From: Bacteroidota bacterium
Lineage (GTDB): Bacteria; Bacteroidota; Bacteroidia; 2-12-FULL-35-15
Direction: 5' to 3'
Assembly (NCBI GenBank): GCA_025963715.1
Contig: JAOQAG010000008.1
Span: 23,907-87,906, forward strand
DNA: 64,000 nucleotides
Below the pieces are notes generated by a model, which was not told the DNA's origin, searched no databases, and saw only the letters and a list, made by a program, of their open reading frames with translations. Below are positions 1,701 to 49,571 of the stretch, in pieces. The translations under genes were made by a program, and so were the position numbers. Every line of letters begins with the position of its first letter. The first letter of the stretch is position 1.

Positions 1701-2681
1701 TTGATGCACATGAATCCCAAAACTATTCAGCGTTTTATCCGCCTGGCACAAGTCACGTTAATCTTTGTTTACCTGGTTATTATAGCCGGTTCGGTGGTAC
1801 GTGCTACCGGTTCGGGCATGGGTTGCCCCGATTGGCCAAAATGTTTCGGGCATTGGATCCCGCCTACAGATGTATCGCAATTACCGGCTAATTATAAGGA
1901 AATATATGCGGGCGAACATCATGCTGTAGCGGAATTTAACGCTGCCAATACCTGGGTGGAATACCTCAACCGTTTGTGCGGCGCAGTGCTGGGTTTGCTG
2001 ATTTTTGCACAATTTATTCTATCGTTCAAATTCCGGAAAACCGACAAGCGCATTTTTGTTTTATCCTTCATGGAATTTATCCTGATCGGCTTCCAGGGCT
2101 GGCTGGGCGCCAAAGTGGTAAGCAGCAATTTAGCATCGGCAAAAATTACGGTTCACACGATCATGGCATTAATTATCCTTTGCATCGCGATCGCGATCAT
2201 TTACCGTGCAAAAAAATTAATGCGCGTACAGCAGGAAAGCAAAATCGATCCTTCAATAAAGAAACTAGGAATTACCGTTCTATTGCTAACTACGATCCAG
2301 ATCATGCTGGGAACAAACGTTCGCGAGGAAGTTGATCTGTTTTTGAAAAACTTTGATGCCATTTTCAGGAATGAAATTGTGGATCATTTAGGATTAGCGT
2401 TTAAAATCCACCGCACATTTTCCATTGTGCTGATGCTTGTAAACGGTTGGCTGGTATATAAAATTTTGAAAAGCGATGCAACAATGATCTTAAAAAACAA
2501 TGCAAAAAAACTGATCGCAACATTATGCTGTGCTTTTGCAGCTGGTGTAATGTTGAGTTATTATGCATTACCGCCTGCTTTGCAGCCGGTTCACTTTTTG
2601 CTTGCCTGCCTTACATTCGGCTTGCAGGTCGGAATTATTTTGAGGGTTTGGAAACCGGAGCAGGTTTTACCATCGGCTTAA
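1701..2681 (+). CDS. ctaA: Heme A synthase (COX15/CtaA family)
   Basis: Polytopic membrane protein with RATGSGMGCPDWPKCFGHWIPP motif typical of CtaA/COX15. A TAnnTTTG-like motif (taattttg, 1684-1691) lies upstream. Confidence 0.8.
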   Translation: MMHMNPKTIQRFIRLAQVTLIFVYLVIIAGSVVRATGSGMGCPDWPKCFGHWIPPTDVSQLPANYKEIYAGEHHAVAEFNAANTWVEYLNRLCGAVLGLLIFAQFILSFKFRKTDKRIFVLSFMEFILIGFQGWLGAKVVSSNLASAKITVHTIMALIILCIAIAIIYRAKKLMRVQQESKIDPSIKKLGITVLLLTTIQIMLGTNVREEVDLFLKNFDAIFRNEIVDHLGLAFKIHRTFSIVLMLVNGWLVYKILKSDATMILKNNAKKLIATLCCAFAAGVMLSYYALPPALQPVHFLLACLTFGLQVGIILRVWKPEQVLPSA

Positions 2682-3447
2682 CCATAACAGGCTTAACTAC
2701 ATTGTTTTTCCACTGGAACGTTTCCACCATGTGATAAATATCTTTTTTGATAAAATCAACACATGGTTTTATTGAATCGTTATTGGGAACCGCATTAAAA
2801 TACAATGCTCCGCGGATAAAATTACTGGTACTGTCCGTTAAAAAAAACTGGATGCGCGATGCCGCATTTCCGCCAATGTCATAGATCAGCCCGTATACTT
2901 TTTGTTTGTCTTTTGATACTACCTCTTCCTGGATTCCGGATGCTTTTATTTCGTGCTTCGACACCAGCTCGTATGTATTTTGCAAATAGCTGCCAAGGTT
3001 GGTCGCATTTACCGATTCGTAGCTTAAATGTAACGTTGCATTCAACGAAGGAAAATCTAAATTCAGCCAGCAAGGCTCTGCTCCCGGATGCGGGTCTTTT
3101 ACCATTTTTGCATACGCAGGCATCTCAAATTTAAACGGACAAGCAGAATCATACATCACGTATTTTTTTTCAGGAAATGTTAAGCGAAAATACGCGCGCG
3201 GCTTTGGCGCAATGGTTTCATCATCGTCACTTCCGCAGGATGATAAGGAGATGCAGGATGCAAGAATCAAGAAACAAGATACCAACGTACGCGCTAAACG
3301 CTTTGAGGAGATGCAAGATGTAAGAGTCAAGAAACAAGATACCAACGTGTTTGCTAAACGCTTATTTGAGATGCAAGATGTAAGATACAAGAAACAAGAT
3401 ACCAACGTATTCACTAAATGCTTACTTGAGAAATCACGCACCAACAT
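2635..3447 (-). CDS. gldD: Gliding-motility lipoprotein GldD candidate (start ambiguous: M at 3447 or 3516)
   Basis: Lies directly downstream of a GldE-like CBS/DUF21 gene, with ssb and mutY next upstream. This matches the mutY-ssb-gldE-gldD synteny described for Flavobacterium johnsoniae. N-terminus carries lipobox-like signal peptides (LTSC / LSSC). Identity by synteny only, not sequence identity. Confidence 0.55.
   Translation of the reverse strand: MLVRDFSSKHLVNTLVSCFLYLTSCISNKRLANTLVSCFLTLTSCISSKRLARTLVSCFLILASCISLSSCGSDDDETIAPKPRAYFRLTFPEKKYVMYDSACPFKFEMPAYAKMVKDPHPGAEPCWLNLDFPSLNATLHLSYESVNATNLGSYLQNTYELVSKHEIKASGIQEEVVSKDKQKVYGLIYDIGGNAASRIQFFLTDSTSNFIRGALYFNAVPNNDSIKPCVDFIKKDIYHMVETFQWKNNVVKPVMVKPMVKPAPVSKPSK
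3248..3430. repeat. Tandem 60-bp x3 in-frame repeat inside the 5' end of the gldD candidate (encodes a tripled signal-peptide-like unit KRLA(N/R)TLVSCFL(T/I)L(T/A)SCIS)
   Basis: Units 3251-3310, 3311-3370, 3371-3430 at about 85-90% identity. Confidence 0.9.
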
Positions 3448-3472
3448 TCCACTGCGTTTCTCACACACAGTA

Positions 3473-3503
3473 CTTGATTCTTGATTCTTGATTCTTGATT
3501 CTT
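3473..3503. repeat. Heptanucleotide microsatellite (CTTGATT)x4 plus partial unit in the gldE-gldD spacer
   Basis: cttgattcttgattcttgattcttgattctt, immediately 3' of the gldE stop (3506-3508). Confidence 0.9.
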
Positions 3504-3505
3504 TT

Positions 3506-4849
3506 TTAGTCTTCATTGCTGCGTTCAATTGTAATTTTAACACGTTTAATTTTCCGGTTATCCGCCGATTCGATCGTGAATAACAGGTTTTCAAATTTAA
3601 TGAGATCTCCTTTTTTAGGAATGCGGCCTTCCAGCTCCAACAGTAATCCGGCAAGCGAATCGGCTTCCCCTTTTGCTTCTTCAAACACATCACCGTCAAT
3701 TTCCAGGACACGGTATACATCATTCAAATGCGCTTTTCCTTCAAACACATAATTATCATCATCCAGCTTCGAATACGTCAGATCATCGTCATCAAATTCA
3801 TCGTTGATCTCACCCACAATTTCCTCGATCACATCTTCCAGCGTAACAATTCCGGACGTTCCGCCATACTCATCCACCACAACCGCTAAGTGGATTTTTT
3901 TAAACTGGAACTCACGCAACAGATCATCGATCTTTTTATTTTCGGGAACAAAAAACGGCGGACGGATAATTCCCTGCCAGTTAAATGTATCGGCTTCATT
4001 CAAATACGGAAGCAAGTCTTTTGTGTACAACACACCGGTGATCTGGTCGATGGTTTCCTTGTAGATCGGCACGCGCGAAAAACCATAATTGGTAATTTCT
4101 GCCAGTAATTTTTTATAATTGGTGCCAAATTCAATGGCCGTTACATCCGTCCTCGATTTCATGATCTGCTTCACATCGGTATTACCGAACTTTACAATTC
4201 CCTGTAAAATTTTGTGATCTTCCTCCGGAATGTCTTCATCAGAAGTCAGCTCCAGCGCCTGCGATAATTCATCCACCGAAATATTGTGCGCTTTAGGCTT
4301 TACTAATTTATTGATCATGGAAGTGGAATACACCAATACCGAGCTGATCGGATAAAAGATCTGCTGCAGCAACACTATAAAAAACAACAATACGCGCGCA
4401 ACTCTTAAAGGGTTTTGTGTAGAGTAAATTTTCGGGATCACCTCACCAACCATTAAGATCAGGAAGGTAACCACCACCACCTGGATCACAAATCCGAGCG
4501 TCGGGCTTTGCGAAAAATCAAACAAACCTTCCATTACGTACGTGGAAAGTATAACAATGGCGATATTGATAAAGTTGATGCTGATCAGCAGCGTTGCCAG
4601 CAAGCGTTTCGGCTTGTTGATAAGCAAAAGAATGCGGTCATCCGTTTTACTGCTGGATTCTTTCAGCGTTTCGAGATCGGTAGGTGTAAGCGCAAAAAAT
4701 GCAGATTCAGCAGCCGAAACCAGCGCTACAATGCAGAGGAAGATCAGCATAAAAACAATTGCCGCTCCAATGCCAAACGTAAAAGGTTTAATAATAACTT
4801 CCGATAAAGGAATGTGAAGATTCGTTATAAAAACACCCGGAAGGTCCAA
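3506..4849 (-). CDS. gldE: Gliding motility protein GldE (CNNM/CorC family: DUF21 transmembrane domain + CBS pair + CorC_HlyC domain)
   Basis: N-terminal 4-TM DUF21 region, CBS-pair region, C-terminal transporter-associated domain; synteny with ssb/mutY/gldD. Confidence 0.8.
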   Translation of the reverse strand: MDLPGVFITNLHIPLSEVIIKPFTFGIGAAIVFMLIFLCIVALVSAAESAFFALTPTDLETLKESSSKTDDRILLLINKPKRLLATLLISINFINIAIVILSTYVMEGLFDFSQSPTLGFVIQVVVVTFLILMVGEVIPKIYSTQNPLRVARVLLFFIVLLQQIFYPISSVLVYSTSMINKLVKPKAHNISVDELSQALELTSDEDIPEEDHKILQGIVKFGNTDVKQIMKSRTDVTAIEFGTNYKKLLAEITNYGFSRVPIYKETIDQITGVLYTKDLLPYLNEADTFNWQGIIRPPFFVPENKKIDDLLREFQFKKIHLAVVVDEYGGTSGIVTLEDVIEEIVGEINDEFDDDDLTYSKLDDDNYVFEGKAHLNDVYRVLEIDGDVFEEAKGEADSLAGLLLELEGRIPKKGDLIKFENLLFTIESADNRKIKRVKITIERSNED

Positions 4850-5329: not shown

Positions 5330-5396
5330 TTTTTTGAATGAATTATAAATGATGAATTATAAATGTGTGTTGGTTTTCAATTGTGATTCGTAATTA

Positions 5397-7164: not shown

Positions 7165-7224
7165 GGATTTGGGAATCAGGATTTTATAATTTTTAAATCC
7201 CAAATCAGAAATCCTAAATTTTTT
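7165..7224 (+). terminator. Candidate terminator hairpin after hup (gatttggga...tcccaaatc, nested aggattt...aaatcct, then T6)
   Basis: Imperfect nested inverted repeats followed by TTTTTT at 7219-7224. Confidence 0.4.
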
Positions 7225-15279: not shown

Positions 15280-17784
15280 ATGAAAAAGCTGTACACTTTA
15301 TTCATACTTCTCACGTTTGCAACATCTGTTTTTTCACAACCCGCCAGCTGGAATGCCCGCGGAATTGGCGGAGGCGGTGCTTTGTTTTCACCGAGCATTA
15401 ATCCGGGTAACGGCAATGAATATTACATTTCCTGTGATATGAGTGAGCTTTTTCACAGCGTCGATTTTGGACAAACCTATTCACAAGTAAATTTTCAACA
15501 GTTTACAGGCGGGCACAATTCGAAAGTGTGTTTTACCGCCACTCCTCACCTGCTCTACTCGATCAGTTATATCAACGATGTGGGTACACCCGTAAAAAGT
15601 AATGACAATGGTTTTAACTGGACCGCGCTCAGCGGAAATCCGGATGCAAGCGAAGACGTAGTTACTATTGATGTAGATTATAACAACCCAAGCCGGATTA
15701 TTATTTCCACGTATGGCGCCATTTATTTTTCGGGTAACAGTGGCGTTACGTTTACACAGTTCCACACTGCCGTGGACGGCGGCGCAGGAAATGTGGTAGG
15801 CGGCGTTTTATTTGATTCCAATAATATTTATGTCGGAACCAACGATGGCGTGCTGGTTTCTACTAATTTCGGCACCACCTGGACAATTGCAGCCTTGACC
15901 GGAATTCCATCTTCCGACAGGATCTGGAGCTTTACAGCTGCTAAAGTTGGTGGCGTGGTACGTTTTTATTGCCTCACAGGCAATGCTGCTGATATTTATG
16001 TGGGTTTACAGGGTTCCGATTATTATGGCTTTTGTACCGGAATCTATTCCTGTGATTATTCATCTTCTACTGCATGGGTGCTGAAAACAACGGGAATTAA
16101 TTTAAGCTCTGATTTCCCAATGTTTATTGATATGGCACAAAACGACCTGAATACGGTATATCTAGCGGGGAGCAATGATAATTCGGAACCGATCATTATG
16201 AAAACCACCAATGCAGGCGGCATGTGGAACCATACATTTTTAACGGCATCCAATCAGAATATAATTACCGGCTGGAGCGGCCAGGGTGGTGATCGCGGCT
16301 GGAGTTACGGCGAATGTCCGTTTGGATTTGATGTATCTGCAACCAATTCACAGGAAGTTATTTTCGGTGATTTCGGATTTTGTCATAAAACAATTGACGG
16401 CGGCGCAACCTGGCAGCAGGCGTATGTGAATACAAGCGGGCAGCATCCGGCGAATGCAGCAACACCGCCTAATCAAAGCTATACCAGTATTGGTTTAGAA
16501 AATACTACCTGTTGGCAGGTGAACTGGCCGGATGCAAATAATATGTGGGCCTGCTATTCCGACATTCGCGGGATCCGCAGCACCGACGCCGGAAACAGCT
16601 GGTCGTATAATTATACAGGTACAACTGCCAACTCCAGCTACAGGCTTGCGAAAAGTACAACAGGAAGATTGTACATGGGTACTTCCAACATCCACGATAT
16701 GTACCAGAGCACGCGCTTGCAGGATGCACAGCTGGATGCAGCGGATGCAAATGGCAAATTGCTTTATTCGGATGATAATGGCGCAACCTGGCTGAACATG
16801 CACACGTTCGGGCATTCTGTTTTTTGGGTGGCGCTGGATCCTTCCAATTCAAACCGCGGTTACGCAAGCGTGATCAATTATGGAGGGGGCGTTGGCGGTG
16901 TGTATCGCTGTAATAATTTATCGGCACTGGGAAGCTCCACCTGGACGCAATTACCTGCTCCGCCGCGTACAGAAGGACATCCGGCAAGCCTGGTGGTATT
17001 GAACGATGGAAAATTAGTGGCAACCTATTCCGGCAGACGCGATGGAAGCAGCGCATTTACTGCCAGTTCCGGCGTTTTTATTTATGATCCGGTAGGCAAC
17101 TCCTGGGCGGATGTTTCGGATGCGGGTATGCATTACTGGACAAAAGATGTGGTGATAGATCCGAATGATGCCACGCAAAACACCTGGTATGTTTGTGTTT
17201 TCAGCGGTTGGGGCGGCCCACCCAATGGCTTGGGTGGTTTATACAGAACAACAAACAGGGGAACCAGCTGGACCAAATTAACAGGCACATCGCTCGACAG
17301 GGTAACTTCCTGCACCTTCAATCCAAACAATGCAAATGAATTGTATATCACAACAGAAACGCAGGGCTTGTGGAGAAGTGCTGACATCAATGCTACAAGT
17401 CCGACCATTTCCCTTGTAGGAAATTATCCTTTCCGTCAACCGGAGCGCGTATTTTTTAACCCGTATAATACTACTGAAATGTGGGTAACCAGCTTTGGCA
17501 ACGGAATGAAAATGGGTACGCTGTTAACCACCGGCGAAGTTGAATTTGCAAATGAAACAGTGTTTGAAATGTATCCGAATCCTGCAACAGATGTTTTAAC
17601 AATCACAACGGATACAAAAAATCCGGTAGTGGAAATTTACAATGTGCTGGGTGAAAAAGTTGGAGGGTACCAAATCACAACTAATAAAAACGAGATCTCC
17701 ATTGCTGATTTAAAAAGCGGGATTTATTTTGTAACGCTGCTGGTGGATGGAAAGAGAGTGACGAAGAAACTTGTGAAGGAATAG
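15280..17784 (+). CDS. BNR/Asp-box repeat (GH74/sortilin-like beta-propeller) protein with T9SS type-A C-terminal sorting domain
   Basis: Multiple S/T-x-D-x-G-x-T-W motifs (SNDNGFNWT, FGTTWTIA, DGGATWQQA, DAGNSWSY, DDNGATWLNM, TNRGTSWTKL); C-terminal MYPNPATDVLTIT...GIYFVTLLVDGKRV. Confidence 0.75.
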   Translation: MKKLYTLFILLTFATSVFSQPASWNARGIGGGGALFSPSINPGNGNEYYISCDMSELFHSVDFGQTYSQVNFQQFTGGHNSKVCFTATPHLLYSISYINDVGTPVKSNDNGFNWTALSGNPDASEDVVTIDVDYNNPSRIIISTYGAIYFSGNSGVTFTQFHTAVDGGAGNVVGGVLFDSNNIYVGTNDGVLVSTNFGTTWTIAALTGIPSSDRIWSFTAAKVGGVVRFYCLTGNAADIYVGLQGSDYYGFCTGIYSCDYSSSTAWVLKTTGINLSSDFPMFIDMAQNDLNTVYLAGSNDNSEPIIMKTTNAGGMWNHTFLTASNQNIITGWSGQGGDRGWSYGECPFGFDVSATNSQEVIFGDFGFCHKTIDGGATWQQAYVNTSGQHPANAATPPNQSYTSIGLENTTCWQVNWPDANNMWACYSDIRGIRSTDAGNSWSYNYTGTTANSSYRLAKSTTGRLYMGTSNIHDMYQSTRLQDAQLDAADANGKLLYSDDNGATWLNMHTFGHSVFWVALDPSNSNRGYASVINYGGGVGGVYRCNNLSALGSSTWTQLPAPPRTEGHPASLVVLNDGKLVATYSGRRDGSSAFTASSGVFIYDPVGNSWADVSDAGMHYWTKDVVIDPNDATQNTWYVCVFSGWGGPPNGLGGLYRTTNRGTSWTKLTGTSLDRVTSCTFNPNNANELYITTETQGLWRSADINATSPTISLVGNYPFRQPERVFFNPYNTTEMWVTSFGNGMKMGTLLTTGEVEFANETVFEMYPNPATDVLTITTDTKNPVVEIYNVLGEKVGGYQITTNKNEISIADLKSGIYFVTLLVDGKRVTKKLVKE

Positions 17785-17824
17785 TTCAAAGTTTAAAGTT
17801 TGAAAGTTCAAAGTTTGCTGTGTA
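17785..17824. repeat. Stop-adjacent element SAE (gttcaaagtttaaagtttgaaagttcaaagtttgctgtg), copy 1
   Basis: Begins 1 nt after the TAG stop of the BNR gene; same family at 22655-22700, 22745-22790, 34761-34811, 41931-41972. Confidence 0.85.
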
Positions 17825-20959: not shown

Positions 20960-21305
20960 AATATACGAAAAAATGTGGTTAGAAAAGAGAGGAATTTCTC
21001 GCAGGATTTCCGTGTGTGGTTTCTCGCAGAGGCTCGGAGAAAGCGGAGGTGGGCGTGTGCCGGGTGGTTCTCCCGCAGAGGCTGGATATATTTTCTCACA
21101 AAGACGCAAAGTTCGCAAAGGCTGTATGTTTCTGTGTGTGGTTTCTCGCAAAGGCGCGGAGAACGTGGAGGCTGGGTAGTTACTGTATGTTATTGCTTCG
21201 CGGAGATCGGATGTATTTTTGCAAACAATCTAAAGACTAATTACTAAAGACCAGCTATTTTTTCCACACAGCCTAATGACTACTTACTAAAGACTAGCTA
21301 CTGTA
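20960..21305. repeat. Tandem/composite repeat block TR (ttctcgcagaggc.cggagaa.cg.ggag units, ttctcacaaagacgcaaagttcgcaaaggc, ctaattactaaagac) upstream of apbC
   Basis: Highly similar to block 43693-44140 upstream of the rluB-like gene; single unit also at 17838-17880. Confidence 0.85.
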
Positions 21306-22654: not shown

Positions 22655-22790
22655 ACTTTTAAAAAGTTCAAGGTTCAAAGTTCAAAGTTTTGCTGTGTTT
22701 GTTTCTATATTTAAAGGTTGAACATCCACAGTATTGCAAGTCTGGCATCTGCGCAAAGCTAACCTTGAACCTTGAACTTTGAACCAAAAA
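22655..22790. repeat. Inverted pair of SAE elements forming a ~135-nt potential stem-loop between porP-like stop and next gene start
   Basis: aaagttcaaggttcaaagttcaaagttttgctgtg ... ggcatctgcgcaaagctaaccttgaaccttgaactttgaacc. Confidence 0.8.
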
Positions 22791-22793
22791 AAC

Positions 22794-23720
22794 TTATTGC
22801 ATTTTAGCTGAGCTTCCTCTTTCCGGCGTTTTGTGAAATTTAATTCCGATCATGATTTCGTGCGTTCCCGTGCTGTATTTTTTAATAGCCGTGGTTGTAA
22901 AATCATACGAATAGGCAAACGTAATGTTTTCCTGCAGCGTGTAACCAATCATCGCCGACATTGCATCCAGGTAACGGAAAGCGCCGCCCAGCCATAATTT
23001 ATCTTTGTAGATGGCACGCAATCCAATATCAAATTGTACCGGTGCCGGGCTTACAAATTTTACACAGGTGGAAGGCTCCACTTTAAAATCATTGCCGAGG
23101 TAAAACTGGTAACCGGCCGTTACATAATAATGTGTTGCCAGCCTGCTCAAACCGGTGTTGGTATAATCGTAAAATTTAATGCGGTTTTGTGTGACCTGCG
23201 GAACGCTTGCGCCGATGTACCATTTGTGATCCGTAGAATACGCATAAACACCTGCGCCAAAATCAGGGATCAACACCGATTCCACACCGCTGCTGATCAC
23301 ATTGTCGTGCGGATCGTGCAGCGTAATTTTAGAACCATCCACCATAAATTGTAAAATACCGCCCGAAAGTCCTAAGGATAAACGTACTTTTTGCGACAGC
23401 TTTAAATGATAGGCGTATGATAAATACAAACCTGTGCGTCTTGTCGGGCCAACAATATCCGTAAACAACAAACCACCCAATCCCACATTCTGATTTTTTG
23501 TAGGCCCGTTCACACTCAGCATATACGTACGTGGCGCATCCGTGATCCCGATCCACTGGTAACGGTTATTCGACATCGCCTCAAAATACGGATGGCTGCC
23601 GCCGATCGCCGGGTTCATCGGATAATCATTCAGCATGTAATTGCTGTAAAGCGGCAATTGCTGTGCCCGCAGATCCGCTACAGCTGCAATAAATAAGAGT
23701 ATCGCTATTATTTTTTTCAC
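22794..23720 (-). CDS. sprF: PorP/SprF family type IX secretion system membrane protein (cognate of the adjacent type-B CTD adhesin)
   Basis: Signal peptide (M)KKIIAILLFIAAVADLRAQQ then LPLYSNYMLNDYPMNPAIGGS..., typical PorP/SprF N-terminus; GTG starts at 23753 (track) or 23720 (better signal peptide). Confidence 0.8.
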   Translation of the reverse strand: MKKIIAILLFIAAVADLRAQQLPLYSNYMLNDYPMNPAIGGSHPYFEAMSNNRYQWIGITDAPRTYMLSVNGPTKNQNVGLGGLLFTDIVGPTRRTGLYLSYAYHLKLSQKVRLSLGLSGGILQFMVDGSKITLHDPHDNVISSGVESVLIPDFGAGVYAYSTDHKWYIGASVPQVTQNRIKFYDYTNTGLSRLATHYYVTAGYQFYLGNDFKVEPSTCVKFVSPAPVQFDIGLRAIYKDKLWLGGAFRYLDAMSAMIGYTLQENITFAYSYDFTTTAIKKYSTGTHEIMIGIKFHKTPERGSSAKMQ

Positions 23721-34760: not shown

Positions 34761-34811
34761 GCATCTGCGCACAGCAAACTTTGAACTTTCCAACTTTAAA
34801 CTTTAAACTTA
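34761..34811. repeat. SAE element copy abutting the stop codon (34812-34814) of the cyclase gene
   Basis: gcatctgcgcacagcaaactttgaactttccaactttaaactttaaactta. Confidence 0.85.
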
Positions 34812-41539: not shown

Positions 41540-41760
41540 TTTAGTATTACGGATAACGCCCGCCTGAACGATTCGGGCAGGAACAGGAACGTCCTTCGAC
41601 AAACTCAGGATGACAACGAATCTGCGTAGAGCCAACGAATAACGAATTTTAACGAATAACGAATCTGCGTAGGGTACGGGTAACAGGAACGAATATTCCC
41701 CCCGCCTGAATGACGCAGTCGGGCAGAAATCTGTGTGGATGGGGTGTATGATGGAACGCG
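41540..41760. repeat. Composite intergenic repeat family B, copy 3 (inverted)
   Basis: Contains reverse complements of tcatcctgag.ttgtcgaaggacgttcctgttc, ctgcccgactgcgtcattcaggcggg and aatattcgttcctgtt. Confidence 0.8.
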
Positions 41761-41930: not shown

Positions 41931-41972
41931 CACAGCAAACTTTGAACTTTCAAACTTTAAACTTTGAACTCC
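41931..41972. repeat. SAE element copy abutting the stop codon (41974-41976) of the rluB-like gene
   Basis: cacagcaaactttgaactttcaaactttaaactttgaactc. Confidence 0.85.
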
Positions 41973-41973
41973 C

Positions 41974-43662
41974 TTATTCCCCGCTGCTAATCATTTTCAG
42001 CATTCCTACTTCTGATTCGGTTAAAAGTCTCCAGCGGCCGCGCGGCATGTCTTTTTTGGTCAGTGGGCCAAACACAACCCGGTCGAGCTTACGGACATTG
42101 TATCCCAGGTGTTCGAAAATACGGCGTACAATGCGGTTTTTACCGGAGTGAATCTCTACGCCTACATTGGTTTTATCTTTTCCATCGGCAACGTAGGAGA
42201 TCTCATCCACTTTGATCGGGCCGTCTTCCAACTCCAAACCTTCTGTGATCAGGTCGAAATCCGAGCGTTTCAGCGGTTTGTCCAATTCTACATGGTAGAT
42301 CTTACGCACGCCGTAGCGCGGATGGGTTAATTTTTTTGTTAGTTCACCATCATTGGTAAACATCAGCAAACCGGTAGTAGCCCTGTCGAGGCGGCCAACC
42401 GGGTAAATGCGTTCGCGGCAGGCATCCTGTACCAACTCCAGCACGGTTTTGCGCTGTTGCGGATCGTCAGATGTAGTCACATAATCCTTCGGTTTGTTGA
42501 GGATCAGGTATACCAAACGCTCCTTTTTCAGGGTTTGTCCGCCATACTTGATCACATCCGTAGGTTTTACTTTGTAACCCATTTCGGTGATCACTTTTCC
42601 GTTTACCTGCACCACGCCTGATTCGATCAGATCGTCGGCCTCCCGGCGGGAACAAATCCCGGCATTGGCAATGTATTTATTTAAACGGATGGTGTCATCG
42701 TCGTTTGATTTGTGCATTCCTGAAGCCGGGCCTTTACCGGATGATTTTTTCTCATACGCGCGTTTTTTATACGGGCGTGAATGGTTCAAACTGTTCCGTT
42801 CGGTACGCGGTGCGCTGTCTCCCTCATCGTCTTTCGGTCTTGGCGCTGCTTTTTTAGTACCATTCTTTTTATCCAGGTATTCCTGTTCGTAATCAATTGC
42901 ACGGTCGCTTGCTCTTACAAAAGCCGGTTTTGATTCGTAAAAATCATCATCATAGCTTTTTTTAGAAGCGCTTTTTTCCGATCTGTCATCATCATCGCGT
43001 GTTTTACGGAAAGTTGGTTTATCAGAAGAAACACGGCGTTTGTTCTCTGTATAGCTTGATTTTTTCTCGCGGTCGAAGGATGCCGGTTTCTTTTCGGAAG
43101 AATCGTCGTTACGGGTTTTGCGGAAAGCTGGTTTATCGCCGTAGGATTTGCGTTTATCATCGCCGTAAGCCGGTTTTTTCTCGCGGTCAAAAGAGGCCGG
43201 TTTCCGTTCGGAAGAATCAGTATCACGGGTTTTGCGGAACACTGGTTTATCGCCGAAAGGTTTGCGTTTGTCATCGCTGTAAGCTGATTTTTTCTCGCGA
43301 TCGAAGGAAGCAGGTTTCCGTTCGGAAGAATCAGTATCACGGGTTTTACGGAACGCTGGTTTATCGCCGTAACCGGATTTTTTTTCGCGGTCAAATGCAG
43401 GTTTTCTTTCGGAAGAATCATCGTCATCACGCTTTTTACGGAATGCAGGTTTATCGCCGAAAGGCTTGCGCTTATTATCGCCGTAGCCGGAAGCACTGCT
43501 TTTTCGAGGCGCGGAGCTTCCAAAGTCAGATGGACGGGAATCATCGCGGTAACGCTCAAAAGCTGGTTTTTGATCCTTTTTTGAGTCTTTGCGGGATTTT
43601 GGTTCAGACGATTTTTTATCCTTAAAATCTTTGCTGTTACTGCGTTTGAATTCCTTTGCCAT
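41974..43662 (-). CDS. rluB: 23S rRNA pseudouridine synthase (RluB/RsuA family) with a ~300-aa Lys/Arg/Asp/Ser-rich repetitive N-terminal extension
   Basis: C-terminal S4 domain (IRLNKYIANAGICSRREADDLIESGVVQVNG) and PseudoU_synth_2 core (YPVGRLDRATTGLLMFTNDGEL). N-terminus has about 5 tandem ~40-aa units (RKPASFDREKKSAYSDDKRKPFGDKPVFRKTRDTDSSE). Start moved from track position 43722 to the second Met (43662) because the upstream codons lie inside the TR repeat block. Confidence 0.8.
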   Translation of the reverse strand: MAKEFKRSNSKDFKDKKSSEPKSRKDSKKDQKPAFERYRDDSRPSDFGSSAPRKSSASGYGDNKRKPFGDKPAFRKKRDDDDSSERKPAFDREKKSGYGDKPAFRKTRDTDSSERKPASFDREKKSAYSDDKRKPFGDKPVFRKTRDTDSSERKPASFDREKKPAYGDDKRKSYGDKPAFRKTRNDDSSEKKPASFDREKKSSYTENKRRVSSDKPTFRKTRDDDDRSEKSASKKSYDDDFYESKPAFVRASDRAIDYEQEYLDKKNGTKKAAPRPKDDEGDSAPRTERNSLNHSRPYKKRAYEKKSSGKGPASGMHKSNDDDTIRLNKYIANAGICSRREADDLIESGVVQVNGKVITEMGYKVKPTDVIKYGGQTLKKERLVYLILNKPKDYVTTSDDPQQRKTVLELVQDACRERIYPVGRLDRATTGLLMFTNDGELTKKLTHPRYGVRKIYHVELDKPLKRSDFDLITEGLELEDGPIKVDEISYVADGKDKTNVGVEIHSGKNRIVRRIFEHLGYNVRKLDRVVFGPLTKKDMPRGRWRLLTESEVGMLKMISSGE

Positions 43663-43692: not shown

Positions 43693-44140
43693 TTTTTCTC
43701 GTAGAATCGCGGATTTTACCACTAAGGCACTAAGAACACTAAGGGTTGTACTCGCTGGCTCGTTTTCTGGTTTTTTCTCGCAGAGGCGCAGAGAACGCGG
43801 AGCTGGGTGTTCGCGGGCTCACGTTTTTTACCACTAAGACACTAAGGACACTAAGCTAATGGCTCGCAGGCTCGCATTTTTTCTCGCAGAGACGCGGAGA
43901 ACGTGGAGCTGGATGCTCGCGGGCTCACGTTTTTTTACCACTAAGGCACTAAGGACACTAAGCTAATGGCTCGCAGGCTCGCATTTTTTCTCGCAGAGAC
44001 GCAAAGTTCGCAAAGGCTACGTGTTTGCTGGGTGCTTGCAGGTTCGGTTGTGATTTCCAGCGGAAACGCAGAGATCAGATGCGCTACGTTCCACACCACC
44101 TACCGACTAATTACTAAAGACTATTTACTAAATTAAACTA
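43693..44140. repeat. Tandem repeat block TR (~118-bp unit x ~2.8 plus ttctcgcagagacgcaaagttcgcaaaggc and ctaattactaaagac tail) upstream of rluB-like gene
   Basis: Units approx 43693-43787, 43788-43905, 43906-44020; paralogous to 20960-21305. Confidence 0.85.
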
Positions 44141-47326: not shown

Positions 47327-47456
47327 TTTATTCGGGAATCAGTAACAAATTCTTATCTTTGAACGCAATTTACGAAAAATAGATATTAGATTTGAGATGT
47401 TAGATTTTAGACCGTTCTATTCGTAAAATCTGCAAAATTTCATCATTCATCAATAT

Positions 47457-49571
47457 ATGACATTCAAGAGATATACTGTTACTGCTGCTTTGCCTTATGC
47501 GAACGGGCCTGTACACATCGGCCACCTTGCAGGCTGTTATTTGCCTGCGGATATTTATGTACGTTACCTGCGCTCAAAAGGCGAAGATGTAAAATTTATT
47601 TGCGGATCGGACGAACACGGCGTGCCTATTACGATCAAAGCAAAAAAAGAAGGTATAACGCCGCAACAGGTGGTGGATAAATATCACAAAATAATGGGTG
47701 ATGCTTTCCGCGATTTTGGCGTTTCCTTCGATATTTATTCGCGCACTTCTTCACAGACACATCACGAAACGGCTTCCGGATTTTTTAAAACATTGTATGA
47801 TAAAGGTGTTTTTAAAGAGGAAGTAACGGAGCAATATTTTGATGAAAAAGCCAACCAGTTTCTGGCCGACCGCTACATTGTGGGAACTTGTCCGAAATGC
47901 GGCAATGAAAACGCTTATGGCGACCAGTGCGAAAATTGCGGCACGAGCTTAAATACAACCGACCTGATCAATCCGCGCTCGACGCTTTCCGGTGAAAAAC
48001 CGGTATTGAAAGAAACGAGGAACTGGTTTTTGCCTTTGGATAAAATGCAGCCGCAAATCGAGGCGTACATTGATTCGCACAAGGAGTGGAAAAGCAATGT
48101 GTTCGGGCAATGCAAAAGCTGGCTGAATGCGGGTTTGCAGCCGCGTGCTATGACGCGCGACCTGGATTGGGGCGTAAAAGTTCCGATCGAAGGTGCAGAG
48201 GGAAAAGTGCTGTATGTATGGTTTGACGCACCGATCGGGTATATTTCCGCTACCAAGGAATTATTCAGGAATAAGGATTTAGGAATTGGGATTGATGCCA
48301 ACCGCGGAACCGAACTGGGTACCAGAACCGGAATTTTGGATGATTCTGAATGGGAAAAATACTGGAAAGATAAAGATACCAAGCTGGTGCATTTTATCGG
48401 GAAGGATAACATTGTTTTCCATTGTATTATTTTCCCGGCAATGCTGATGGCGGAAGGTTCTTACATCCTGCCTGACAATGTTCCGGCGAATGAATTTTTG
48501 AACCTGGAAGGAAATAAAATTTCCACATCGCGCAACTGGGCGGTATGGCTGCACGAATATTTGCTGGAGTTTAAGGACAAGCAGGATGTATTGCGTTATA
48601 CGCTTTGCGCGAATGCACCGGAAACAAAGGACAATGATTTTACATGGAAAGATTTCCAGGCGAAAAACAACAATGAGCTGGTGGCGATCCTTGGAAATTT
48701 TATCAACCGCACGATGGTGCTGACGCATAAATATTACGAAGGAAAAGTACCGGTAGCGGCAGAATATACAAAAAGTGATATTTTATTGCTGGAAGAGATC
48801 AGCAAATATCCGGCGAAGATCGCGGCAAGCATTGAACAATACCGCTTCCGCGAAGCGCTGGGTGAATTGATGAACCTGGCGCGTTTGGGAAATAAATATT
48901 TAGCGGAAAATGAACCCTGGACGCTGATCAAAACGGATGAAAAACGTGTGCAAACGATCATGAATTTGTCGCTGCAGATCTCCGCTAACCTGAGTGTGCT
49001 GATGGAACCTTTCCTGCCATTCACTGCAAAGAAGCTGGGCGCGATGATGAACCTGAATACCGATTTAAAATGGAACGATGCAACGCGCACGGATCTTTTA
49101 CTGGCGGGGCACCAGGTCAATCCATCCAGCTTATTATTTGATAAAGTGGAAGATGATGTGATTGTTGCACAGGTACAAAAACTGGAAAATTCGAAAAAAG
49201 AAAATGAAGCGGCGAATGTTGCTGCTGTGGAGCCTGCAAAACCGGAAACATCCTTTGATGATTTTTCCAAAATGGACATTCGCATTGGTACCATTGTGGA
49301 AGCGGAACGTGTACCAAAAACCGACAAGCTTTTGAAATTGCTGATCGATACGGGAATTGACAAGCGTACGGTTGTTTCGGGCATTGCGGGATCATACAAA
49401 CCGGAAGAGATCATCGGGCAACAGGTAAGCATTTTGGTAAATCTTGCGCCACGTAAAATAAAAGGGATTGAAAGCCAGGGGATGATCCTGATGGCGGAAA
49501 ATAATAAAGGTGAATTGAGCTTTGTAGCGCCTACAAAAGCAGATATGAATAATGGCGGCGCTGTAAAATAA
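47457..49571 (+). CDS. metG: Methionine--tRNA ligase with C-terminal EMAPII-like tRNA-binding domain
   Basis: HIGH-like [12 protein letters not shown], zinc knuckle [23 protein letters not shown]-equivalent KISTSRNW, C-terminal tRNA-binding OB domain. Confidence 0.95.

Follow-up and report, generated by a model that had tools for sequence, protein, structure and literature searches.

Among described systems close to the locus treated here are GldD/GldE of Flavobacterium johnsoniae and F. psychrophilum, GldD being a gliding-motility lipoprotein encoded by a gene downstream of gldE. The locus in question is the gldE-gldD junction of a Bacteroidota bacterium (GenBank assembly GCA_025963715.1), lying in a stretch of 64,000 nucleotides of contig JAOQAG010000008.1 (positions 23,907 to 87,906; hereafter the window, in whose numbering coordinates are given), and the element in question is a 60-bp tandem triplication in the leader-coding part of gldD. 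Long N-terminal extensions ahead of a normal signal peptide, with its n-, h- and c-regions, are found in autotransporters and two-partner secretion proteins as the extended signal peptide region (ESPR). For GldD of F. psychrophilum, the annotation gives a lipoprotein precursor of 187 aa (PMC5682007). Leader-coding DNA with tandem repeats has a precedent, the opa genes of Neisseria carrying CTCTT coding repeats in the leader-peptide region that are prone to slipped-strand mispairing (PMC3960869). So are heptamer arrays, those of TAACTGA having been described in Beggiatoaceae, Cyanobacteria and Bacteroidetes (PMC4679880). As for the lipoprotein export signal (LES) of Bacteroidetes, its consensus is SDDDD in B. 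fragilis and SDDFE in F. johnsoniae, and its position relative to the +1 Cys is critical (PMC5080379).

The window locus resembles its counterparts in F. johnsoniae and F. psychrophilum in that both proteins belong to the same families, the order is gldE-gldD, and GldD is a lipoprotein precursor with a lipobox Cys. Unlike Flavobacterium GldD, the predicted precursor is 293 aa long (270 if counted from the ATG at 3447) and has a 93-residue leader, which holds a 7-bp array together with three copies of a 20-codon repeat. Many distant loci have a gap of ~50-65 nt between the gldE stop and the Cys codon, implying a leader of ~20 residues. The unusually long extension ahead of an otherwise normal signal peptide recalls the ESPR, yet the latter is a conserved motif of Sec and signal peptidase I substrates, whereas the GldD extension is hypervariable, made of repeats or low-complexity sequence, and belongs to a signal peptidase II lipoprotein. 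The polar residue and acidic run that directly follow the +1 Cys (C-G-S-D-D-D-E) are reminiscent of the LES, with a putative function, and fit its general form of a polar or positive residue and then at least two acidic ones at +2 to +6, although a G at +2 displaces the motif by one residue with respect to the B. fragilis and F. johnsoniae consensus. With opa, the locus shares pyrimidine-rich tandem repeats inside the signal-peptide coding region, prone to slipped-strand mispairing and encoding the hydrophobic or leader part; however, opa has perfect 5-bp units whose number shifts the frame and switches expression, while the 60-bp units of the window are in frame and 13-20% diverged. Finally, the intergenic 7-bp arrays of the window, found by starts and stops, fit the description of the TAACTGA arrays (PMC4679880) and are similar to the long simple sequence repeats (LSSR; Mrazek 2007) and to the cyanobacterial short tandemly repeated repetitive (STRR) sequences; the array at the gldE-gldD junction, unlike these, lies inside a reading frame, in which it would be translated.

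Here, I report that the leader-coding DNA of this gldD carries a lineage-specific, frame-preserving triplication, that the ATG overlapping gldE is conserved among relatives whose own leaders are built of repeats, and that hydrophobicity is distributed asymmetrically over the three copies. Which start is used, which h-region is engaged and which Cys is processed, I infer from sequence. It is moderately likely that the triplication is a leader minisatellite confined to this lineage, that translation begins at ATG 3516, and that unit 3 with the adjoining L-S-S-C does the work of the signal peptide, units 1 and 2 being passengers that are discarded. The features on which this account draws are the following.

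3367..3426, minus strand: repeat unit 1, encoding SKHLVNTLVSCFLYLTSCIS; best 9-mer Kyte-Doolittle value 2.01 (eroded)
3307..3366, minus strand: repeat unit 2, encoding NKRLANTLVSCFLTLTSCIS; best 9-mer Kyte-Doolittle value 2.08 (eroded)
3247..3306, minus strand: repeat unit 3, encoding SKRLARTLVSCFLILASCIS; best 9-mer Kyte-Doolittle value 2.93; ancestral-like, aligning to the single unit of the closest relative (L081)
3235..3246, minus strand: conserved lipobox L-S-S-C, with the Cys codon at 3237-3235; the probable lipidation and signal peptidase II site
3217..3234, minus strand: G-S-D-D-D-E after the +1 Cys, an acidic run resembling the Bacteroidetes LES
2635..3234, minus strand: mature domain and stop codon of gldD, intact; stop at 2635-2637

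The identity of the gene, proposed as a gldD candidate by the first-pass annotation, is upheld by profile searches. Its product matches PF25593 (E=1.6e-68, 230 bits, profile positions 2-170 of 170) and the equivalog TIGR03512 (227.3 bits, the cut-off being 120; positions 4-182 of a 182-position profile), hence above curated cut-offs over the full domain, and the gene adjoins gldE on its downstream side; the gldE product in turn scores 559 bits against TIGR03520 (cut-off 376).

The in-frame triplication that had been noticed in the gldD leader region is confirmed both by Tandem Repeats Finder (TRF; period 60, 3.1 copies, 3248-3431, 85% matches, 0% indels, score 256) and by an independent repeat search, which returned three 60-nt copies spaced 60 nt apart. 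The pairwise nucleotide identities are 87%, 83% and 80%, slightly below the first estimate of about 85-90%. The copies differ at 14 of 60 columns; the 21-mer ACGTTGGTATCTTGTTTCTTG is invariant, and its three occurrences are the only ones in the 64 kb (0 expected, from 100 shuffles). In each unit, K(R/H) is followed by a hydrophobic stretch and by an L-x-S-C motif, and LSSCGSDDDE comes directly after unit 3 in the gldD frame; the repeated block of 20 codons would comprise the K-R end of an n-region and a hydrophobic core, together with an internal L-x-S-C distinct from the conserved lipobox. In spite of the 13-20% divergence, the 180 nt of the units are free of stops and indels in the gldD frame, and the period is a multiple of 3. 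The hydrophobic core is in turn encoded by a degenerate array of heptamers, (TCTTGNN)n, with TRF detecting a period of 7 inside the units; this accounts for the recurring S-C ... L-x-L pattern and for the L-x-S-C motifs spaced 7 residues, and makes the core a substrate for slippage. No further copy of the unit occurs elsewhere in the 64-kb window, and the 21-mer has no exact match in metagenome contigs. A dispersed element or a regulator-binding iteron was considered and rejected, for the unit is found nowhere else, lies downstream of a conserved start and keeps the reading frame.

The scans of genome and metagenome contigs yielded, among the matches listed, mostly distant loci of at most 70% identity, the close clade being sampled by protein look-ups. 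The closest relative found (P0001/L081, GCA_900291705.1) shares ~90% of its mature GldD residues with the window as measured by BLAST, or 91.6% when codons are aligned globally, and is 97% identical in GldE; it has no 60-bp repeat, and the flanks of the window repeat align cleanly to it. That the arrangement is out of the ordinary, as first supposed, is borne out by alignment to related gldD genes: there is one unit in the closest relative and the triplication is absent from the best 120 GldD orthologs (0/120), while a simple count of hydrophobic segments in the leader gives three in the window only and two in P0098 only. As judged from these alignments, the triplication is lineage-specific. 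A recent expansion had also been considered, which the units contradict, since they are 13-20% diverged at all codon positions, evenly and with no codon-position bias, the frame remaining intact. On a population scale the event is old, and is placed after the split from L081, at a substantial fraction of the depth of that split; at 4-fold degenerate sites, the window and L081 agree in 54% of cases in gldD and in 73% in gldE. Units 1 and 2 form the most similar pair and have a derived Thr in common, which suggests a duplication in two steps. No second allele of the species turned up in a collection of 15 billion proteins or in metagenome contigs; three candidate window proteins sought in the same protein collection were not present there.

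With regard to the start codon, four more features come into play.

3514..3516, minus strand: probable gldD start ATG, within ...AATGAAGACTAA, the gldE stop ending 10 nt further on
3473..3503, minus strand: perfect heptamer array (AATCAAG) x4.4 (TRF 100% matches, score 62)
3445..3447, minus strand: second in-frame ATG, downstream of the heptamer array; the start picked by the first-pass annotation
3506..4849, minus strand: gldE, encoding a CNNM/CBS/CorC_HlyC protein (open reading frame (ORF) with the Pfam domains CNNM, CBS and CorC_HlyC)

The ATG at 3516 overlaps the end of gldE (3506) by 11 nt, and from it the frame is open over 93 codons to the lipobox Cys. The gldE stop and the gldD frame were located in 162 related loci; in 101 of the 162 fetched, gldE was detected upstream of gldD. 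An ATG lying 3-25 nt before the end of the gldE stop, in a constant relative frame, is common across Bacteroidota. Such an overlapping ATG (at -10, -13, -16 or similar) is present in almost the whole of the close clade (L002-L008, L081, L083), in L163, L164 and L168, and in numerous distant loci. In relatives, 7-bp tandem arrays fill the stretch between this ATG and the hydrophobic core. All 10 array-bearing loci that were read (the window, L081, L002, L003, L005, L006, L008, L163, L164 and L168) have an open, in-register frame from the overlapping ATG, while untranslated arrays would be in register in at most one third of cases per locus. L163, L164 and L168 are annotated with short downstream starts, yet their frame is open from the overlapping ATG; in L002, L003, L163 and L164 there is no alternative start able to give a signal peptide. 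The orthologs annotated with very short leaders, P0097, P0106 and P0154, are in frame from the overlapping ATG, and, to go by their DNA, their short starts are gene-caller choices. Since the overlapping ATG is conserved, the frames are open in 10 of 10 loci and several loci have no alternative, gldD is probably translated from ATG 3516, with a leader of 93 residues, rather than from ATG 3447, which is probably not the primary start; the overlap of ATG 3516 with the gldE stop suggests translational coupling, and ATG 3447 may serve as a secondary or back-up start. In L163, a second in-frame leader array, the pyrimidine-rich (TCTCCCG) x4 at 1425-1455, stands beside a (GTATCAG)n array; the gene as called by the Joint Genome Institute (JGI) begins only beyond these two arrays, although no stop interrupts the frame from the ATG that overlaps gldE.

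In the frame from ATG 3516, the heptamer array reads ESRIKNQESS and falls in the n-region of the leader. Its sequence is the reverse complement of the heptamer core (TCTTGNN)n present in each unit, giving inverted repeats I1-I7, the best of 19 nt at 95%. Slippage by +/-7 nt in the array would truncate the ORF from 3516 after 13-38 codons, ATG 3447 remaining in the gldD frame. Frame-shifted OFF alleles were sought among the orthologs with very short annotated leaders (P0097, P0106 and P0154), all three of which are in frame; of the 10 array-bearing loci read, none is out of frame (0/10). Array units vary among species (AATCAAG, GTATCAR, AGTACAA, ATTYCAA, AGATTTC), and on direct reading the gldD-junction arrays of the window, L002, L003 and L008 have no stop trinucleotide in any frame.

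Every unit had been credited with a lipobox-like motif. The L-x-S-C is indeed present in each, the pattern [LVI][ASTVI][GAS]C being matched by LTSC, LTSC, LASC and LSSC, but the copies in the units amount to non-conserved Cys residues in the middle of h-regions, and only the last Cys (3237-3235) is invariant in the ortholog alignment; the TIGR03512 profile begins just upstream of it. K/R residues precede each of the three uncharged hydrophobic segments, in keeping with an n-region followed by an h-region. The three differ in hydrophobicity: unit 3, at 2.93, stands at the 43rd percentile of ortholog leaders, and units 1 and 2, at 2.01 and 2.08, are below the 1st percentile (2.34). Two positions make up the difference, being hydrophobic (L/V, I/A) in L081 and unit 3, and Y/T and T in units 1 and 2. 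It is because unit 3 has kept an ortholog-like hydrophobicity and adjoins the conserved lipobox that it is taken as the probable working copy. After the +1 Cys, G8, D10 and D11 are nearly invariant in the ortholog alignment. The mature N-terminus C-G-(S/G/D)-D-D-D-(E/D) (window 3217-3237) is conserved across the GldD clade, and its likeness to the LES may mean that GldD is surface-exposed in these organisms.

Leaders of GldD vary widely in the clade. As annotated, they measure 6-103 residues (median 38), with 30 residues or more in 100 of 120 orthologs, and 38 of 121 leaders (the 120 orthologs plus the window) show a 7-residue periodicity, i.e. at least 5 residue identities at lag 7. Periodic stretches such as KYQVSGIRYQVSS, KNQESRIKNQES, FRILDFRFRIL and KIQDSRFKNQD are translated 7-nt arrays; the array of L167 is (CAAGAAT) x19.9. 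In the pairs P0156/P0157 and P0163/P0159 (at least 90% identical), leaders differ by exactly +7 aa, that is 21 nt or three heptamers, and in related clusters the only array length differences seen are frame-preserving ones of +21 nt. In other clusters with mature GldD at least 90% identical, the leaders are entirely different (P0061/P0140/P0146/P0147, P0073/P0190/P0192 and P0103/P0179/P0180/P0183), which suggests leader swapping or insertion at the gldE-gldD junction. Some of these unrelated leaders carry in-frame PFDSAQGD or PFDYAQGD inserts, resembling small elements of the repetitive extragenic palindromic (REP) type that have been read through. A 48-bp in-frame repeat of the same n/h block occurs in L165 (x2.7) and L166 (x1.9), with 71-77% matches, and represents an independent event in another lineage; there, the hydrophobicity of the copies in order is 1.82/1.89/3.04 and 1.64/1.03/3.04, the last copy alone having kept its hydrophobicity, as in the window. 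Some relatives have 60-80 residues ahead of a single h-region, which shows that long leader extensions are tolerated in the clade. The view that the window leader is abnormal and might impair export does not sit well with these data, long repeat-laden leaders being the clade norm and a comparable duplication having arisen elsewhere; the sequence comparisons made gave no evidence of impaired export or of 60-bp repeat-number switching.

Put together, the favoured account would run as follows. The triplication would have originated by slippage or unequal exchange in degenerate 7-bp array DNA, (TCTTGNN)n. Translation of gldD would start at ATG 3516, coupled to the gldE stop, and give a 93-residue leader made of a heptamer-encoded polar segment, unit 1, unit 2, and unit 3 with L-S-S-C. 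Unit 3 would act as the core of the working signal peptide, and lipidation and cleavage at the conserved Cys (3237-3235) would yield a mature protein beginning CGSDDDE, while units 1 and 2, as decaying passengers in an extended n-region, would be lost with the leader. The triplication would persist because there is hardly an insertion that this leader would not accept, provided that it keeps the frame and brings in no stop. Most likely the triplication is nearly neutral, being removed during lipoprotein maturation, and probably not a defect.

Several observations weigh against this account. In its main rival, unit 1 is the working signal peptide, cleaved at its own L-T-S-C (the first of the options raised initially), so that in mature GldD a hydrophobic, Cys-rich tether of 46 residues, formed by units 2 and 3, would precede CGSDDDE. 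With ATG 3447 as the start, residues 1-25 show the geometry of a canonical lipoprotein signal, namely a 24-residue signal with R4, K9, a 14-residue h-region and an L-T-S-C that fits the lipobox pattern. A lipobox Cys usually lies within roughly the first 15-35 residues (PROSITE PS51257 rule), a range that holds only for unit 1 (residue 25 from 3447), the conserved Cys being residue 94 from 3516 or 71 from 3447. Moreover, 76 residues ahead of the working h-region are unusual for Sec substrates, and Sec normally engages the most N-terminal signal. The hydrophobicity asymmetry comes down to two amino-acid positions per unit, the open frames of orthologs are largely taken from metagenome consensus sequences, and all units share the invariant 21-nt core (p about 0.013), which pure passengers would not need and which hints at constraint or gene conversion acting on all copies. 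On the other side, the h-region of unit 1 (2.01) is less hydrophobic than those of 99% of ortholog leaders, the internal L-x-S-C Cys is not conserved in orthologs while the last Cys is invariant, and a start at 3516 adds 23 residues ahead of unit 1; the acidic motif would also sit 46 residues from the +1 Cys, although its position is critical (PMC5080379). I regard unit 1 as an unlikely, if serious, candidate for the working copy. It is far less probable that the repeats are untranslated, as 5'-UTR or intergenic repeat DNA comparable to the remaining heptamer arrays of the genome, and that the true start lies in or after unit 3, e.g. at the TTG for Leu55 (270-aa numbering). In the rest of the window, such arrays are intergenic, beside starts and stops, and short starts are annotated in the orthologs P0011, P0097, P0106 and P0154; but those short calls whose DNA was read have an open frame from the gldE-overlapping ATG, a unit-3 start would be a TTG with a 17-residue leader that has no positive n-region, and the period is a multiple of 3, with 180 nt free of stops and indels notwithstanding their divergence. 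An assembly artefact is hardly credible at all: tandem repeats can be mis-assembled, but with 14 of 60 columns differing these copies are not identical reads collapsed or duplicated, their 13-20% divergence makes assembly duplication unlikely, the units stay in the reading frame, and L081 can be aligned cleanly to the flanking sequence.

The remaining readings grant the repeats a regulatory role. In one, the array (AAGAAUC)n immediately past the gldE stop would pair with the UCUUGUUUCUUGAUUCUUG core of one unit, as RNA or as a DNA cruciform, and modulate gldD translation or mRNA stability, the triplication offering alternative partners. The 19-nt inverted repeat at 95% complementarity, with pairs to all three units, points in this direction, as do a minimum-free-energy fold that pairs the array with units 2 and 3, the invariance of the 21-nt core at synonymous sites as well (p about 0.013), the TTCTTGA arrays in the h-region of relatives that have CAAGAAT arrays, and within-locus duplexes that are stronger than between-locus ones (permutation p=0.006). 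Yet folding z-scores are unremarkable (-1.6 for the window, -0.7 for L081), the permutation signal comes from related loci, within-locus complementarity is missing in L002, L003, L006 and L008, and the complementarity is trivial in so far as purine-rich polar codons face pyrimidine-rich hydrophobic ones; a search of 3000-3800 for known RNA families, promoters and terminators found none of note (no Rfam match). A functional pairing is accordingly doubtful, and a conserved array/h-region RNA hairpin was set aside on account of the ordinary z-scores and of the duplex signal being absent from those four loci. In another reading, the 60-bp units would form a contingency locus whose copy number (1, 2 or 3) tunes GldD export and gliding. 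Identical cores of 21-22 nt could support in-frame unequal exchange, the leader is dynamic in relatives, and loss of gldD abolishes gliding and affects secretion in Flavobacterium psychrophilum (PMC5682007). Against it, 13-20% divergence is the opposite of what a frequently resetting array would show, changes that keep the frame would leave expression on, neither the protein collection nor the metagenome contigs yielded a second allele, and the copies in L165/L166 (71-77% matches) are old as well. The initial suggestion that repeat number might control motility finds no support here, the 60-bp units being diverged and in frame, and copy-number tuning is very doubtful. Set beside opa, with its near-perfect repeats whose unit length is not a multiple of 3, the locus gives a mixed picture: the 60-bp units (multiple of 3, 13-20% diverged) do not correspond, and the (AATCAAG) x4.4 array, 100% perfect and lying between ATG 3516 and ATG 3447, does. 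The array is the more plausible mutational hotspot of the two. In a bolder proposal, as doubtful as the pairing one, the gldE-gldD junction would be a hotspot of translated repeats by which gliding and type IX secretion are switched in the manner of a contingency locus, the leader being read through perfect 7-bp arrays from a start coupled to gldE. A slip of a single heptamer would truncate GldD after 13-38 codons and only 21-nt changes would restore it, while ATG 3447 and the triplicated signal module would provide a bypass or back-up leader, making the switch leaky. More broadly, an inverted pair of arrays, purine-rich (NNCAAGA)n and pyrimidine-rich (TCTTGNN)n, may have been co-opted for the polar n-region and for the hydrophobic h-region with its L-x-S-C, respectively.

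Two neighbouring features deserve mention.

3212..3484, plus strand: antisense ORF of 90 aa on the reverse strand of the repeats; spurious
1701..2681, plus strand: COX15/CtaA gene, convergent to gldD

The antisense ORF had been dismissed as spurious from the outset, rightly so: it exists, but matches no protein family at threshold, and it is the complement of a lineage-specific repeat that L081 does not have. The 3' end of gldD overlaps the COX15/CtaA gene by 47 nt (2635-2681), a convergent overlap present also in L081, L163, L164 and L168.

Elsewhere in the 64 kb, the window has other repeats. There are about ten 7-bp (or 14-bp) tandem arrays, nearly all intergenic and beside stop or start codons, for instance after the gene (15280..17784) of a protein with a type IX secretion system C-terminal domain (T9SS-CTD), after the PorP/SprF gene (22794..23636), and ahead of ssb and of metG (47457..49571). 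The arrays, including the one at the gldE-gldD junction, lie as follows.

3473-3503: tandem array (AATCAAG)n, gldE-gldD junction
5338-5365: tandem array
7194-7219: tandem array
17783-17817: tandem array
22663-22689: tandem array (AAAGTTC)n
22761-22785: tandem array (AACCTTG)n
34776-34810: tandem array
41634-41664: tandem array
41936-41970: tandem array
44105-44132: tandem array
47380-47411: tandem array

Several of them are followed by a shared CTGTG...CGCAG(A/T)GG or CTGCGCA motif. The arrays at 22663-22689 and 22761-22785 are an inverted pair (20 nt at 95% complementarity) flanking a 78-nt spacer, itself located between the PorP/SprF gene and its next same-strand neighbour, and could form a long hairpin; among the other heptamer arrays of the window, a search for inverted pairs gave only this one and, weakly, 7159/7198. 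In-frame repeats of 114 bp x2.8 and 90 bp x2.1 (82-86% matches) at 43058-43459 lie inside the long N-terminal extension of a protein with S4 and pseudouridine synthase domains (ORF 41974..43662, minus strand). Intergenic tandem repeats at 43770-44003, 21216-21302 and 44105-44132 may constitute a dispersed family; they include a 107-bp repeat x2.2 (93% matches) with embedded CACTAAGG octamers and CGCAGAG motifs, as well as 43-bp and 14-bp repeats with the motif CTAAAGACTA(A/C)(T/C)TA.

To sum up, the annotation of gldD would gain from placing its start at the gldE-overlapping ATG, from no longer regarding the 93-residue leader as a defect, and from dropping the antisense ORF. The locus shows how tolerant a lipoprotein leader can be: within one Bacteroidota clade that of GldD ranges from about 20 to about 100 residues, is put together from 7-bp arrays that are translated and from duplicates of the signal module, and turns over although mature GldD remains at least 90% identical. 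Should the proposed processing be correct, the locus would be a natural experiment on how far an h-region and its lipobox can lie from the N-terminus, and on the decay of redundant signal copies. If, as is less likely, the junction acts as a contingency locus, environmental Bacteroidota would have a simple genetic switch for gliding and T9SS-dependent traits; and if the arrays have been co-opted, repeat DNA would be a material from which signal peptides can be made and remade.

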